Shown here piece by piece: positions 50,068 through 59,929 of a stretch of DNA of 64,000 nucleotides. The translations under genes were made by a program, and so were the position numbers. Each line of letters opens with the position of its first letter. The first letter of the stretch is position 1. The notes below the pieces were generated by a model. It did not search any database and had not been told where the DNA came from. It saw nothing but the letters and a program-made list of their open reading frames with translations. Source of the DNA: Naegleria gruberi (taxonomy: Eukaryota). The stretch lies in the NCBI GenBank assembly GCA_000004985.1, contig GG738872.1. One strand, given 5' to 3'.

Positions 50068-50127
50068 TAAAAGGAATCAAATTACGGATATGGATTATCA
50101 GAACATTATTTTCATAATGAATGTGCT

Positions 50128-50198
50128 CGTCTCGTGGTGTAATGGTAGCATAGTGGACTTTGAATCCATTGACGGAGGTTCGATTCCTCCCGAGACGG
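50128..50198 (+). tRNA. tRNA-Gln (anticodon UUG).
   Basis: Folded by hand. Acceptor CGTCTCG/CGAGACG (7 bp), D-arm GTGT-AATGGTA-GCAT, anticodon stem GTGGA/TCCAT with loop CTTTGAA (anticodon TTG), T-arm GGAGG-TTCGATT-CCTCC, discriminator G. The core TGGTGTAATGGT.AGCA…GGACTTTGAATCC is nearly identical to canonical eukaryotic tRNA-Gln(UUG). Confidence 0.8.
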
Positions 50199-50351
50199 TA
50201 ACGTGGCGAGCCATAAGTTTTACATCTTAGGTATTTACGTTTATCTCCTCAAAAATTCCAAACTTGCGATTGAGAGGATTCTATTCTTTTCCTGCTTGAT
50301 GAATTACAATAATTACTACATGAATTTCTTGGTATTTAAGGTAGTTCTAGT

Positions 50352-50408
50352 TGTAGATTTATAATATTAAATTCCATTCAAGCTCACTTCTCTGCAGAAT
50401 ATTTCTTG
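50352..50408. repeat. Left arm of an inverted-repeat pair; 33-bp perfect core at 50376..50408 (attcaagctcacttctctgcagaatatttcttg).
   Basis: Exact reverse complement of 57091..57123. Flanking about 25 bp (gatttataatattaaattcc) matches the other arm (ggatttaatattttaaatcc) with indels. Confidence 0.6.
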
Positions 50409-51015
50409 CTTCACACTCAATGATGAAATTGGAGAGAAAGGAGATTTATCTCCTCAATCTTATTATAAACTTACGCTTAAGTGGGGTAATTATTAAGGTG
50501 TTGGCAATTTGGCTTGAGAAGATTGAAGGACTTGAACATGGTTGTCAATTCTTATTAGATACCAGCTCTGCTCAACCAACCTTGCACATTTCTTTCACAA
50601 ATGTTGTTGCTGCTGTTAATCCTCAAAATGGGCAAATAATGAGAACAACAACTTTCAATTTAGGCTTTAATCTTTCTCATCAATCATTTTTGACTGTGGG
50701 AAGAGATTTCTTGGCGATTCCACTTGCCAATTCAGTTGTTATTCTTGACAAACTTACTTTCAGATTCATTTGGTTGGAAGAAAGGGAAATATATTTCATA
50801 ATACTCAATGTCTTCATGTTCAAACTTGATATCAAGAGATACCAATTCATTCTTCTTGACATGTAGGAATTATGACGGATCATACACAGCATTAAGATAT
50901 GACGTTTCAAACACCAAAGTTAATACCAATTCAATGCTTGGCATTCCACGTGTTTGTTCCAATTAAATTCCTGTAGATGTTTATGATTCACATTTTGGTA
51001 ATGATGCTACGATCT

Positions 51016-55963: not shown

Positions 55964-56851
55964 TTAATCGTCTGCTGAATATTCAAAGAAGATACATTTT
56001 CCACTATTGGTAATAAACACCACAGCCAATGAGCCAATAACGCCAACATAACACTCCTTATATTCAGCAACAATTGGACATTCTTTCTTAATGAAAGCAA
56101 GCAATTCTTCTAATTTGGAGATTTCTTCGAGGCACTCCTCTCCTCCAATCACTTTTTTCAAAAAGTCAAACAAGTTGTTGTCAAATTCCTGCTTGACATC
56201 CTCAAATGTTCTGTCCAAATAAATTTGTGGATAGAATGAATCTCTTTCACAATTTGTAAAATACTCAAATTTGTCCTTAATATTACTCTCCAAGGAAATA
56301 CTCTGGTATTGGTAATAGTAATTGTTTTGAGGAATTGAACTGGCCACAACGCCAATGATTTTCTTCATCAAATCTGAAAATAATTCTCCAATTTTCTCAT
56401 CATGTTTGATCATTCTTTTCAAAAAGTGAATTCCAAACACACTGGCATTGAAATTAAAATCGAATGTTCTTGCACATCCACCACTGCCATAATTGAGACC
56501 ATTCATTCCATGATATGTAACAGTTTTGTAACCGTTAGAAAATTCTTGTGGAATGATATTTTGAGCAAAAAATCTTCTCATGTCAATCTTCTCGGTCAAT
56601 TGATAGAGAAGGGAGTGCTTTTCAGCAAGTACTTTCCACAATCTCAAGTTTGTACTTGGAGTTGCTTCAATTTGCCAATTTAACATCTGGTACCATTCTT
56701 TGCAAACCAAGGAACAGTTTACCAAAGTTTCGAATTGCCATGGCTCGTTTAAACCATCAAACAGATTTATAAAAATTTCAATCCACAATTCTGGGAGGAT
56801 TAGTTTCATTTTTTTAACTTTATCTTTGCTAACTTTTTTAGCACGAATCAT
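55964..56851 (-). CDS. F-box-like protein (unique C-terminal domain).
   Basis: …LILPELWIEIFINLFDGLNEPWQFETLVNCSLVCKEWYQMLN… matches the F-box consensus well (LP.E.W..IF..L……LV.CSLVCK.W). First ATGs at about 56851 or 56809; the track start is TTG. Confidence 0.4.
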   Translation of the reverse strand: MIRAKKVSKDKVKKMKLILPELWIEIFINLFDGLNEPWQFETLVNCSLVCKEWYQMLNWQIEATPSTNLRLWKVLAEKHSLLYQLTEKIDMRRFFAQNIIPQEFSNGYKTVTYHGMNGLNYGSGGCARTFDFNFNASVFGIHFLKRMIKHDEKIGELFSDLMKKIIGVVASSIPQNNYYYQYQSISLESNIKDKFEYFTNCERDSFYPQIYLDRTFEDVKQEFDNNLFDFLKKVIGGEECLEEISKLEELLAFIKKECPIVAEYKECYVGVIGSLAVVFITNSGKCIFFEYSADD

Positions 56852-57090
56852 TGCTATGTTAAATACTTTTGTCCAAGTCCCAATTAGAACTTTTACAATG
56901 GTTTCTGTAGCTCCCAATAAACTTTCTAAGAATAAAATGTAACCTTGTATTAAACTGGGCAATGTCAAACCTAATTAAGTGTCTTAAACTTGTATACCCA
57001 GGTCAGCACTCTTTTACAATTGAAATTCATCGCTCAACTCCACTTGTTTAGATTTGGAGATGGATCATGGACCACCTCTTCTGAATTGAA

Positions 57091-57160
57091 CAAGAAATAT
57101 TCTGCAGAGAAGTGAGCTTGAATTGATATGAGTTGGTTTTGGATTTAATATTTTAAATCC
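57091..57160. repeat. Right arm of the inverted-repeat pair; 33-bp perfect core at 57091..57123.
   Basis: caagaaatattctgcagagaagtgagcttgaat is the reverse complement of 50376..50408. The outer about 35 bp is imperfectly similar to 50352..50375. Confidence 0.6.
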
Positions 57161-57840
57161 AAAACTATTTAAAGAAGCACCTTAAACATCAAGAAATACG
57201 ATAGAAGTTAGTTTTCAATAATTTTGCTATTATTCATCAAGCAACCCCTCTCAATCTCAATACCAAGTGAAGAGGTACATCTTTTTGAATAGTATAATCA
57301 TTGATTGTTCTACCGTCTTCCTTAGTGAAATTTATTTATGAACTCTATCTACAATTTTCTAAACTACTTGAAATAGAACGTCTTACAAGAGCTGTTCTAA
57401 TGTTTCAGGAATGAGAACAAAAAGTGCCTTTCGTAAGATTGAAACTTGTACCCATTAGAAACAAAAGGAGTACAATTTCCAATACAGTGTTTGCTGTAGT
57501 TCTTTACAGTCCATATAAAGATCAAAAAGGAATAGATAGGAAAATTGAAAGAATCATTTAGTCCTACTTTCAACATTGGAAATTTATTCATTCCAATGGA
57601 TTCCACGCCATGGTGCTCAATCCAACCATTGAAGTTCTTTCATTCTGTTCTTGTTCAATTCTCCGCACTGAATAACAAAGACCAAATGTACAATGTCCAA
57701 AATCTGTGGCTACTCTTTTTTTGGAAAATCATTAATCTTCAATCATACCAAAAAAATCAATATACTAATCAAACTATTCTTTTCAAATCTTTAAAACTGG
57801 AACATTGTTTCACTTCTCAAACACAATCAAAAAACAAAAA

Positions 57841-58245
57841 ATGAAAAGATTCGTTTCAATCTTATTGATTGCATTGACTTTGGCAATTCTTGCACTTTCC
57901 TTCACTTCAGGAGTTTCTGCTGAAGAATCAGCTGCCTCAACACTTTCCTTGTATATTAGAAAGAATAATAACAAGAAGAGAAATCTCAAGAGATTCAGAC
58001 TCAAGAAGAGAAAGAACAATAGAAAGCTCAACAAGTACATTGACACCTATGGAAGAAAGAGAAGAGGATGGAAGAGATATGGAAAGAAGAGAATTATCAG
58101 AAAGAAGATTGATGTTTATGGAAAGAAGAGAAGATTTAACAAGAAGAGAAGAATCGACACCTACAGAAAGAAGAATAGAAAGAATAGAAAGAACAGAAGA
58201 GGTGGAAAGAAGAATAAGAAAGTTGACCTTTACAAGCGTAAATAA
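57841..58245 (+). CDS. Small secreted, extremely basic tandem-repeat protein (signal peptide plus Lys/Arg-rich repeats). Candidate antimicrobial/histone-like or nucleic-acid-binding secreted peptide.
   Basis: ATG at 57841. Signal peptide MKRFVSILLIALTLAILALSFTSGVSA. Mature part is over 50% K/R with recurring units (I/V)D(T/V)Y(G/R)(K/R)KRR: KYIDTYGRKRRGWKRYGKKR / KIDVYGKKRRFNKKRR / IDTYRKKNRKNRKNRRGGKKNKK / VDLYKRK. Ends TAA at 58243-45. Confidence 0.5.
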   Translation: MKRFVSILLIALTLAILALSFTSGVSAEESAASTLSLYIRKNNNKKRNLKRFRLKKRKNNRKLNKYIDTYGRKRRGWKRYGKKRIIRKKIDVYGKKRRFNKKRRIDTYRKKNRKNRKNRRGGKKNKKVDLYKRK

Positions 58246-58452
58246 TTGAAAGATTGAATCAATTATTCCTTAAAGCACAAATTTTGAATCAATTTTGCTC
58301 TTAAATATAAAATATAACTTGTGAGTCTCTCGACCGAATTCAATCTTTTTTTCCTTCATCATTTCATGAGCTCATTCAAATCTTGTGGCAACTTGGAAAA
58401 CTGTTTTTCACTTCTTTTTAAAAAAAGCACTTCAAATAAAACTTCGAAAAAA

Positions 58453-59929
58453 ATGTCTGATCATCAAACACCTAGCGTTTCACCAGCAACAACAACATCG
58501 GGGGAAATTGTTCATGAGCAACAACCAGCTGCTACTGTTGCTGCTGTAGAAAATACAACAACAATTCAAGAACCAACTTCAAGTGAAGTAAATTTAGTGT
58601 CAACATCGGAAACAAGTAATAGTGGGAATGATGATAAAAAGAGAAAGAATCCACCTTCCGAATCATCAAATGACAAGAAGAAGAGAAAGGAAAATTATAA
58701 GAAGGGAGGTAAAGGAACAGCTTCTGCCAAGAGAGATAATGATTGGGGTCCAAGAGAACCTAAAGAAAAAAAGGAAGGAGAAGAAAAATTCCAAAAAAGA
58801 AGAGTTGCAATTTTCATTGGGTATTTGGGAACAAATTATAATGGTTCACAAACTTCGTATGTGTTTAAAATTATTATATCTAATATTGAAATTATTTAGA
58901 AATTTTACCAATCCTAATGTCAAGACTGTAGAAGAAACTGTGTTTAAAGCTCTTTGTCAAGCAGGAGGTGTTTCTGGTGACAATAGTACTGACATGAATA
59001 AGGTTCATTTTCACAGAAGTTCAAGAACTGACAAGGGTGTTCATGCTGCCTCAAATGTTTTGGAAATGAAACTTTTAATGAAACCAGGATTGGAAGAAGA
59101 AATGAGAAAACTTTTACCTGAGGATATTGTTTTTTATGGATACAAAAAGGTATCTAAATCATTCAATGCTAAGGAACATTGTACAGCTCGTACCTATGAA
59201 TATTTATTACCTGCTTTTGCATTATCACCAGATCCAAAAGCAGCAACATGGTTTGGACAAATTAATATTGACAAGATTACCAAGGAGGATGTGGAAAGTG
59301 AAAATTTGAATGATATTTACAATTATGATCCAACAGATGAACAAATTGAAAAGGCTAATCGTGTTTTGAAAAACTTTGTTGGAACCAATAGTTTCCATAA
59401 TTATACTCAACTCACAAAAGCCAAGCCAAACTCTTTCAATAGACACATTACCAAGTTTGAATGTTCTAAAGCTTTTGAAATTGATGGAATGAAAGTTGTC
59501 AAGCTCACTGTCACTGGTTCTTCATTCATTTATAACCAAATCAGAAAAATGGTTGGTTTCATGATTGCTGTCATGCGTGGTTCCCTCAATGAAAGTGATT
59601 TCAGTACCTCTGTTGATAAGGAAGTTACTGCCAACGTTCCACTTGCTCCAGCCAATGGATTATTATTATGTGAACAAGAATTCAAGAGATATAATGCTAA
59701 ACAAGGAGCCAAAGTTAATGGTCACGTCACTCCTTCCGATTATTACAAGGAGATGGAAGAATTCAAGAAGAGAATCTATTCCCACATGTTGAAACTTGAA
59801 AAGGAAGAAGGTATCATTGCTAAATTCCTTTTACATTCTAGGGGGTGGAGATTATCGAAGGGATCTAAAGGAGAACCAATTAACAATGTCGAGGAACCAG
59901 TATTAGAATCAATCGAAGAAGATGAATAA
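58453..59929 (+). CDS. PUS1: tRNA pseudouridine synthase, PUS1/TruA family. Two exons: 58453..58856 and 58900..59929; 43-nt intron.
   Basis: Ser/Thr/Lys-rich N-terminus, then RVAIFIGYLGTNYNGSQ… and the catalytic-Asp motif RTDKGVHA, …ARTYEYLLP…, …NSFHNYT…, …GSSFIYNQIRKMVG… Junction ACTTC|gtatgt…atttag|A in phase 2 (gives …GSQTS-NFTNPNVKTVEE…). Confidence 0.8.

Follow-up and report, generated by a model that had tools for sequence, protein, structure and literature searches.

A selectively constrained gene of Naegleria gruberi predicted to encode a small secretory polycation with recurrent φ-D-x-Y motifs

Extreme contents of lysine and arginine, structural disorder, and an expected multivalent electrostatic mode of binding are features of protamines, histone H1 tails and histone-derived peptides, ε-polylysine, and the eosinophil major basic protein (MBP) and eosinophil cationic protein (ECP). 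Among these polycations, protamines and H1 are nuclear and have no signal peptides, and MBP and ECP are built on folded lectin and RNase domains. Cationic host-defence peptides, such as the cathelicidins PR-39 and LL-37 and the amphibian prepro-antimicrobial peptides, are made as secretory precursors in which a conserved signal peptide precedes a faster-evolving cationic part, and are encoded by multigene families. Another layout is found in the Kex2-processed repeat proteins (KEPs), the yeast α-factor precursors, and the precursors of ustiloxin and phomopsin, which are peptides that ribosomes make and that undergo modification after translation (RiPPs); here, a signal peptide is followed by short cores in variable copy number, flanked by KR, RR, or KK, and the core can be the size of a Tyr-containing tetrapeptide (PMC6339444, PMC7329392). 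In the present study, we analyzed a gene at positions 57841-58245 of a 64,000-nucleotide stretch of Naegleria gruberi contig GG738872.1 (assembly GCA_000004985.1), hereafter called the window, whose predicted product shares traits with all of these systems.

The open reading frame (ORF) that a first-pass annotation, made from the letters of the window, had placed at this position was found to be intact; it starts with an ATG at 57841 on the plus strand, runs uninterrupted, and ends with a TAA codon at 58243-58245, encoding 134 amino acids. Its DNA was compared with that of a paralogue (L004), two distant relatives (L003 and L005), and a near-identical copy of the locus (L001), all of which lie on metagenome contigs. 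Between the window gene and L004, 22.5 synonymous differences were counted versus 15.5 non-synonymous ones, corresponding to a dS of 0.35, a dN of 0.051, and a dN/dS ratio of 0.14. The ratio is 0.42-0.49 in the comparisons with L003 and L005, for which dS is near saturation. Frame 0 alone is free of stop codons in both the window gene and L003, the alternative frames containing 3-13 stops within the span of the gene in the window and 5-10 in L003, and the indels among the relatives are all in-frame. The codon usage is also strongly skewed. Lysine is encoded by AAG and AAA in a ratio of 27:3, whereas 24 other long ORFs in the window together give 521:514 (Fisher p = 8e-6); AGA accounts for 22 of the 23 arginine codons, codons ending in C are enriched, and the longest run of A in the ORF is 4 nt. 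Stalling of ribosomes on poly(A) is well established, and such a bias would be expected if a Lys-rich message is translated and keeps clear of poly(A) tracts, if it is highly expressed, or both. From the dN/dS ratio of 0.14, the single conserved open frame, and the AAG/AGA codon bias, we can conclude that, as far as sequence comparison can tell, positions 57841-58245 are a selectively constrained single-exon coding gene of N. gruberi.

The opposite view, that the ORF arose by chance in purine-rich low-complexity DNA or that it encodes a nuclear or nucleolar nucleic-acid-binding protein with a merely signal-like N-terminus, is very improbable. It could draw on the AAG/AGA-rich DNA, which lacks stops in several frames and leaves a 119-aa E/R-rich ORF open in the +1 frame of the window, on the omission of the gene from the reference annotation, and on the usually nuclear location of K/R-rich proteins. 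The 119-aa ORF is a by-product of the purine-rich DNA, and a chance origin of the gene itself is rejected by the excess of synonymous over non-synonymous change, the conservation of the frame, and the codon bias. Moreover, the start, the stop, and the hydrophobic N-terminus are kept in relatives with 56-59% identity in the alignment, and five paralogues have been called as genes independently. A histone, protamine, or ribosomal protein was rejected as well, the product having a signal segment and no profile match; with no Pfam family reached at E ≤ 0.01, histone and ribosomal families included, and with a signal-like N-terminus, the earlier remark that the product resembles neither histones nor ribosomal proteins holds.

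The first-pass annotation had also named membership of a longer spliced gene for a non-secreted protein as an outcome that would overturn its reading. Instead, the start, the stop, and the collinearity of the ORF are shared with the database proteins P0001-P0003 and with L003-L005, the similarity between paralogues ends 3 nt past the stop codon, and the homology searches returned no longer gene model containing the ORF. The exact product was absent from a collection of 15 billion proteins and from a gene-position index; P0001, P0002, P0003, and P0008 were looked up in the assembly index as well, likewise with no exact match. Because the product is missing from these collections and no longer model contains it, the gene is taken as unannotated in the N. 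gruberi reference. The locus copy L001 is 99.2% identical to the window at the DNA level and encodes an identical protein. L001 and L004 come from one environmental metagenome (ENA ERZ929261 / run ERR1078381, project PRJEB11402), which contains an N. gruberi-like amoeba. L004, a paralogue resembling NAEGRDRAFT_71365, lies beside an RCC1/WD40-like gene, in a neighbourhood that differs from that of the window gene.

The predicted product consists of MKRFVSILLIALTLAILALSFTSGVSA (aa 1-27), followed after the predicted cleavage by EESAASTLSLYIRKNNNKKRNLKRFRLKKRKNNRKLNKYIDTYGRKRRGWKRYGKKRIIRKKIDVYGKKRRFNKKRRIDTYRKKNRKNRKNRRGGKKNKKVDLYKRK. The whole 134-aa protein has a pI of 11.8, and the chain after cleavage is 107 aa long with a net charge of +45. 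Counted from E29, its 106 residues contain 29 Lys and 22 Arg (48% K+R), and the mature part further contains 12 Asn, 7 Tyr, and 4 Asp. The polybasic chain of about 110 residues in the initial description is thus there, its wording as mostly Lys/Arg being slightly generous. Neither a Cys residue nor an N-glycosylation sequon was found in the mature part of the window protein. Only its first residues depart from this composition; the EE..(A/V/T)STLS(L/T)YI block is retained in every family member with a reliable N-terminus, including the relatives with 56-59% alignment identity. An AlphaFold2 model computed with the family alignment has a mean predicted local distance difference test (pLDDT) score of 62 and a predicted template modelling (pTM) score of 0.23, and shows long low-confidence helices and no globular fold. 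The mature chain is treated here as a presumably intrinsically disordered or extended polycation.

The N-terminal segment is composed of an n-region, MKR, an 18-residue hydrophobic core from F4 to F21, and a c-region, TSGVSA, in which Val at -3 and Ala at -1 conform to the (-3,-1) rule. All relatives have Val at -3 and a small residue (A, G, or C) at -1, the nearby residues being variable. Cleavage after VSA is favoured because these two positions are constant in every member while their neighbours vary. The segment of the window protein follows the N-terminal pattern of the family, MKR(F/I)(V/I)SILLIALTL..., and is identical to that of P0003 at 27 of 27 positions and to those of the most distant members at 16-18 of 26-27. 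Across the family, identity ranges over 59-100% in the signal segment and 42-93% in the basic region; in the distant comparisons, the values are 59-69% for the signal segment versus 42-59% for the mature part. By sequence, the product carries all the hallmarks of a protein that enters the secretory pathway.

Whether the segment is removed bears on a rival explanation, in which the product is a type II signal-anchored membrane protein whose uncleaved helix holds the polybasic domain on the luminal or extracellular side, for example as a receptor that captures anionic bacteria. The 18-residue hydrophobic region, with a Kyte-Doolittle mean of 2.55 over its best 19-residue window, is within the transmembrane range, its conservation across the family is unusually high for a signal peptide, and AlphaFold draws residues 2-22 as one helix. 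In contrast, the c-region, with its helix breaker and its small residues at -3 and -1, is kept in all members while the flanks vary, a pattern expected only under cleavage by signal peptidase, and an uncleaved anchor is therefore improbable. The signal peptide, described at first as clean, fits in its n-, h-, and c-regions and at -3/-1; this assignment rests on rules, and the hydrophobicity is compatible with an anchor too.

Within the polybasic chain, four copies of the motif (I/V)-D-(T/V/L)-Y, hereafter φ-D-x-Y, start at aa 67, 90, 105, and 128 (IDTYGRKRR, IDVYGKKRR, IDTYRKKNR, and VDLYKRK-stop). All four Asp residues of the protein fall in this context, and the flanks are runs of K and R. 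At least three copies of the motif occurred in 0 of 200,000 composition-preserving shuffles of the mature sequence. In the third copy, D106, T107, and Y108 are invariant in all seven sequences of the family alignment. The initial description spoke of tandem repeats with regularly spaced Tyr and Asp. The motifs are separated by 23, 15, and 23 aa, which is irregular, and of the tandem arrangement the non-random motif and degenerate internal repeats remain: there is no clean array, the single one detected by Tandem Repeats Finder (TRF) being a 9-nt unit in 3.1 copies, and the other repeats at the DNA level measure 31-48 nt with 71-81% identity. A strict tandem-repeat protein was ruled out, no head-to-tail unit of constant length being present at the DNA level. 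Conserved Asp and Tyr residues with dibasic flanks would fit a substrate for processing or modification.

The protein belongs to a small family. In a homology search, the matches were four proteins entered for N. gruberi as 'predicted proteins' (E = 5.5e-60 to 1.6e-27; 74-86% BLASTP identity), P0001-P0003 reaching 78-91% identity in the MAFFT alignment, together with one metagenomic cluster with 47% BLASTP identity and 56-58% in alignments. The five hits reach E = 8.5e-13, and four of them cover 100% of the query. When 1.84 billion representative proteins were searched exhaustively with a hidden Markov model (HMM), the one newcomer was NAEGRDRAFT_50395, the fifth protein from N. gruberi, and all other hits were known family members; a wider profile search with seven sequences gave no further members among the matches listed, P0008 itself falling outside that list. 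Relatives were found neither in metagenome contigs of the Joint Genome Institute (JGI), searched with peptide patterns and a degenerate DNA pattern of the signal peptide, nor in viral contigs. The annotated members are NAEGRDRAFT_71365 (XP_002673524), _71069, _68008, _68479 (P0004), and the N-terminal 132 aa of _50395 (P0008); these five lie on five scaffolds, none of which is the 413,107-bp scaffold of the window gene. The best match in a profile search of the PDB was a designed repeat protein at E = 3.6. The statement that there is no obvious homolog signature is therefore true for Pfam and PDB and does not extend to the genome itself, which holds five paralogues. Four of the paralogue locus tags were searched in the literature and occur in no paper, and the papers retrieved on the secretome were unrelated. 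What is new here is the unannotated sixth copy, the architecture, motif, and regulatory elements of the family, and its apparent restriction to one clade, the N. gruberi clade being the only one from which it is known; five uncharacterized 'predicted proteins' of the family are already in databases.

Members with a reliable gene model share a signal segment, the EE.. block, and a K/R/N-rich body of about 90-110 residues with a net charge of +32 to +45 and 2-5 motifs, for which the family form is [KR][KR]-φ-D-x-Y-[G/K/R][KR][KR]. The C-terminus (V/F)D(L/I/F)YK(R/K)K-stop is present in every member except the P0008 model. A search for paralogues with variable repeat number, as had been proposed, proved positive: the six N. 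gruberi paralogues and their relatives carry 2, 4, or 5 motif copies. P0005 and P0007 have about 110 aa of polybasic sequence with a net charge of +44 and two motif copies only. The database versions of both (P0005, 163 aa, L003 ~110-529; P0007, 164 aa, L005 ~127-549) read through an in-frame TAG. In the standard code, the ORFs end with VDFYKKK (L003, 139 aa) and VDLYKKK (L005, 140 aa), so that an alternative code was evidently applied when genes were called in the metagenomes. P0008, a member with five motifs, is cut before the expected ...KKVDxYKRK end and is joined to a NOT-box (CCR4-NOT-like) protein, and in the gene model of P0004 the signal peptide is replaced by MVMGFRHTQTQTQTHTQ..., which has the look of a translated microsatellite; the fusion and the aberrant N-terminus are probably annotation artefacts. 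L003 and L005, which come from two metagenomes and are 92% identical in DNA, differ by 14 non-synonymous changes versus 1 synonymous change (ω ~3.4), the changes being clustered in an indel-prone NRK/GKK zone near the C-terminus. Positive selection was not adopted as an explanation, the numbers being too small (p of about 0.19 versus neutrality, calculated by hand) and the changes clustered; the pattern hints at diversifying change or at turnover by replication slippage.

A combination of a secretory-type N-terminus and an extreme polycationic region has binding to polyanions as its natural physico-chemical reading, as far as sequence can suggest. In the explanation that we tentatively prefer, although with less than even confidence, the product would be a secretory polycation, disordered and able to bind polyanions, among which the surfaces of bacterial prey are the most plausible. 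The signal peptide would direct co-translational entry into the endoplasmic reticulum (ER) and would be cleaved after VSA, and the mature 107-aa disordered polycation (+45) would then follow the secretory or endolysosomal route, the cell exterior included. Its action would be multivalent electrostatic binding to polyanions, the putative targets being surfaces with lipopolysaccharide (LPS), teichoic acid, or nucleic acid on bacterial prey or competitors, in food vacuoles or outside the cell, and the outcome could be agglutination or permeabilization such as protamine or polylysine bring about. The sparsely placed φ-D-x-Y motifs might serve as 'stickers' that provide the only specific or aromatic contacts, or as modification sites. 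Prey and competitor surfaces, along with nucleic acids, are considered the most plausible targets because the amoeba is bacterivorous. The whole chain, rather than excised peptides, is taken as the active entity because polycationic length and charge persist in P0005 and P0007, where the motifs drop to two. A conserved signal with a faster-evolving mature region, in a multi-copy family with indels, is typical of host-defence and effector genes. An effector-type reading fits the present family because its paralogues are dispersed, its indels are in-frame, and, between distant members, the signal has diverged less than the mature part. The preferred explanation also agrees with the potency of highly cationic peptides in this organism: exogenous cathelicidins reach the food vacuoles of N. 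gruberi, PR-39 leads to encystment and death, and peptides of this kind can kill eukaryotic cells (preprint 10.64898/2026.08.23.746575).

Several observations weigh against this explanation. The Asp and Tyr residues are strictly conserved, have dibasic flanks, and are often followed by Gly, none of which is explained by simple charge binding. Hydrophobic-moment scans of the mature chain revealed no outstanding amphipathic segment, whereas most membrane-active antimicrobial peptides are amphipathic. The hydrophobic core is long enough for a signal anchor, as described above. None of the UniProt identifiers of the five paralogues occurs in the supplements to a whole-cell proteome of N. gruberi (PMC9035749) or to a chromatin proteome preprint; this absence is weak evidence because an in-silico trypsin digest of the window protein leaves just three peptides of at least 6 aa. 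Lastly, bacterial prey as the target is a guess, and a cyst-wall or glycocalyx polysaccharide, polyphosphate, or granule cargo would be equally compatible.

The last point leads to a rival explanation, in which the polycation is a structural or packaging component of the amoeba itself. It would neutralize and condense an acidic partner such as those just named, or would promote adhesion to substrates of negative charge, and its Tyr residues could be sites of oxidative cross-linking or of conversion to 3,4-dihydroxyphenylalanine (DOPA), as in extensins, the Tyr-rich proteins of oocyst walls, and the cements of mussels and sandcastle worms. The same secretory signal and polycationic features apply here; Tyr is invariant in every motif, further Tyr/Phe positions are conserved (RYG/KFG and KY), the lack of a fold suits a component of a coacervate or matrix, and the codon bias points to high expression. 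Small size, secretion, strong basicity, disorder, and Tyr residues adjacent to Lys are also traits of mussel mfp-3/5, sandcastle-worm Pc proteins, and extensins. However, Tyr makes up 20-30% of adhesive foot proteins and 6.6% (7/106) of the mature chain here, by which an mfp-type DOPA adhesive is ruled out; the Gly/Ser/Hyp repeats of these adhesives, and Gly/Pro/Ser-rich repeats in general, are absent, Arg and Asn are abundant, and the invariant Asp has no explanation. Taken together, a structural role is judged unlikely.

Another rival takes the motifs themselves as the products. In such a pro-peptide precursor, a kexin/furin-type convertase would cut at KR, RR, or KK, and trimming by a carboxypeptidase would yield short Tyr-terminated peptides, (LNKY)IDTY, IDVY, IDTY, and VDLY, as signals or toxins, of which those followed by Gly could be amidated or Tyr-modified. 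A basic cluster lies on both sides of every motif copy in every member, with the exceptions of the first copy (KY-φ-D-x-Y, with a single Lys two residues upstream) and the last (K(R/K)K-stop after it). Gly follows Tyr in motifs 1 and 2, in RYGKKR, and in three of the five copies in P0008, giving the X-Gly-dibasic signature of amidation, and GRKRR matches the consensus R-X-K/R-R of the proprotein convertases of the subtilisin/kexin type (PCSK; PMC2770060). The copy number varies from 2 to 5, and φ-D-x-Y(G) is the sole recurrent product of an in-silico dibasic digest. The layout of KEPs (PMC6339444) is formally present, with a rule-based signal peptide, at least three repeats, and KR, RR, or KK between them, the four φ-D-x-Y copies all being separated by runs of at least two K or R. 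A conserved Tyr is essential in tetrapeptide RiPPs (PMC6339444), and a furin-type P-domain has been inferred in Excavata (PMC2770060).

Other observations count against a precursor. The spacers are almost pure K/R/N and are as well conserved between paralogues as the motifs, whereas in known precursors the dibasic sites are single and the spacers are neutral or acidic. The motif cores make up 12% of the length when counted as 4 aa, under the 15% threshold for KEPs (24% with two flanking residues on each side), and their spacing is irregular. P0005 and P0007 retain the full polybasic length with two motifs. No convertase, PAM/PHM, or Tyr-modifying enzyme was found documented for Naegleria in the literature, and there are no modifying-enzyme genes nearby, the neighbours being F-box-like, leucine-rich repeat (LRR), pseudouridine synthase, and ASF1 genes. 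Processing into peptides is thus considered unlikely.

Bolder forms of either idea can be stated, and are put forward as speculation that would more probably fail than hold. One is a self-made 'killer polycation', the intact +45 chain being a secreted, cell-penetrating or bacteria-condensing weapon that parallels the cationic killer peptides of animals and evolved independently; the other is the first convertase-processed multi-copy precursor outside fungi and animals, with Tyr-terminated, partly amidated tetrapeptides as signals, such as encystment or differentiation cues, or as toxins.

The flanks of the gene are conserved as well (Table 1). Similarity to the paralogue begins about 227 bp upstream of the ATG, and the region from -80 to -10 is less conserved than that from -230 to -80, which includes the blocks TCAATCCAA.C.TTGAAGTTCTTT.ATTCTGTTCTT, AAAGACCAAATG.ACAATGTC.AAAATC, and ACTCTTTTTTTGG.AAA. 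A further upstream block, AAAGACCAAATGTACAATGTC, has a single occurrence in the window. Positions 57614-57840 are a candidate promoter and 5′ untranslated region (UTR) of the family, which would co-regulate its members. Downstream, AATTTTG-(N2-4)-AATTTTG followed by (C/T)TTG(T/C)GAG was found in each of the four family genes whose DNA could be compared (window, L004, L003, and L005). The heptamer pair occurs once in the 64-kb window, with 0.21 occurrences expected by chance and at least one match in 19 of 100 shuffles; it is a putative family-specific 3′ element, not a general signal. The locus has the appearance of a compact gene of one exon, with conserved promoter and 3′ UTR elements of its own.

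Table 1. Positions of the gene, the segments of its predicted product, and its flanking elements in the window
Feature	Position	Strand	Remarks
Single-exon coding sequence, complete	57841..58245	+	134 codons + TAA; sixth paralogue, unannotated, of NAEGRDRAFT_71365/_71069/_68008/_68479/_50395
Signal-peptide-like segment, aa 1-27	57841..57921	+	MKRFVSILLIALTLAILALSFTSGVSA; predicted cut between VSA and EE; rule-based
Conserved block, mature N-terminus, aa 28-40	57922..57960	+	EESAASTLSLYIR; sole acidic, non-basic stretch; sole good tryptic peptide
Motif copy 1 IDTY, aa 67-70	58039..58050	+	context NKY-IDTY-GRKRR
Motif copy 2 IDVY, aa 90-93	58108..58119	+	context RKK-IDVY-GKKRR
Motif copy 3 IDTY, aa 105-108	58153..58164	+	context KRR-IDTY-RKK
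9-nt micro-repeat, 3.1 copies (KNR-KNR-KNR)	58171..58198	+	AAGAATAGA; TRF; paralogues differ here by in-frame indels
Motif copy 4 VDLY, aa 128-131	58222..58233	+	followed by KRK + stop; conserved C-terminus (V/F)D(L/I/F)YK(R/K)K-stop
Upstream region common with L004	57614..57840	+	conserved blocks about -230 to -80; A-rich leader ACAAAAAATG
3′ UTR tandem heptamer AATTTTG-AATC-AATTTTG	58280..58297	+	35-52 nt downstream of the stop codon, counted from its last base

The window has a GC content of 34% and contains LRR, F-box-like, Pus1-type pseudouridine synthase, and ASF1 genes. The ASF1 ORF is identical to NAEGRDRAFT_68398, and the LRR neighbour, although it evolves fast, matches a protein of N. 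gruberi with 100% identity along all 489 aa; the two lie on the same 413,107-bp scaffold, which places the window in the N. gruberi reference genome. The gene had been placed immediately outside the right arm of an inverted repeat (IR). The repeat is weak: its arms (50324-50413 / 57087-57197) measure about 110 bp each and are 72% identical, with a 36-nt core at 97%. Since 644 bp separate the end of the right arm from the ATG downstream of it, the stated adjacency falls away. A search for inverted repeats of at least 60 nt with a 14-nt seed found none, and the idea of a long IR was rejected, the only pair being this one. The arms lie directly upstream of the ORF 50420-50866 (+) and of the F-box-like ORF 55964-56968 (-), in the same relative orientation; they may be a 5′ exon, UTR, or promoter element common to two genes that are not otherwise alike. 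Because each arm is upstream of another gene, no link between the IR and the ORF at 57841-58245 was seen. A tRNA-Gln gene (anticodon TTG) lies at 50127-50199 (+), with an Rfam score of 68.8 bits, about 125 bp to the left of the left arm. The Pus1-type gene downstream (58454-59929, +) is split over two frames, MSDHQTPS... being in the ORF 58321-58899 and the catalytic part in 58622-59929, and therefore has a short intron or a frame change near 58.7-58.9 kb; its N-terminal region is K/E-rich.

Heteroloboseans include the pathogen N. fowleri, and their extracellular and food-vacuole biology is little known. If the preferred explanation, a secretory polycation that binds polyanions, is true, a lineage-specific secreted family of extreme charge would be a new and very simple kind of effector in this group, and could bear on the killing or handling of bacteria, on adhesion, or on the building of cyst walls by amoebae. 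The φ-D-x-Y motif in a K/R-rich chain offers a testable handle, whether it serves for modification, for processing, or as a 'sticker' in binding. In addition, at least one family member is missing from the reference annotation of N. gruberi and two more are probably mis-modelled there, and trypsin-based proteomics is nearly blind to proteins of this type. The scope is narrow, being that of one small orphan family in one clade.

Compared with the systems described at the outset, the protein has no sequence relation to the natural polycations, and none of these carries a φ-D-x-Y motif. The cathelicidins and amphibian peptides are 12-40 aa long, are freed from a pro-piece that is anionic or of the cathelin type, and in most cases are amphipathic or rich in Pro/Arg, whereas the present chain has 107 aa, is non-amphipathic, and is devoid of a pro-domain and of Cys. 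The label defensin-like, offered in the first-pass annotation, does not apply either: Cys is absent from the window protein and from six of seven relatives, the single Cys of P0005 lying just before the predicted signal-peptide cleavage site, and there is no framework of 6-8 Cys. KEPs are a fungal class with spacers that are not polybasic, in contrast to this heterolobosean protein, which is not part of a gene cluster. The precursors of amidated neuropeptides and hormones in animals and green algae resemble it in their Tyr-Gly-basic sites (here IDTYG-RKRR, RYG-KKR, and IDVYG-KKRR) and in their multiple copies of short peptides behind a signal; they differ in having acidic rather than basic spacers, and Gly is missing here after motifs 3 and 4, the share of Tyr-Gly motif copies differing between paralogues. 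Collectively, the protein belongs by sequence to an unnamed N. gruberi family only; in its presumed mode of action it most resembles the natural polycations and cationic host-defence proteins, and its layout recalls, in part of their defining features, that of KEPs and neuropeptide precursors.

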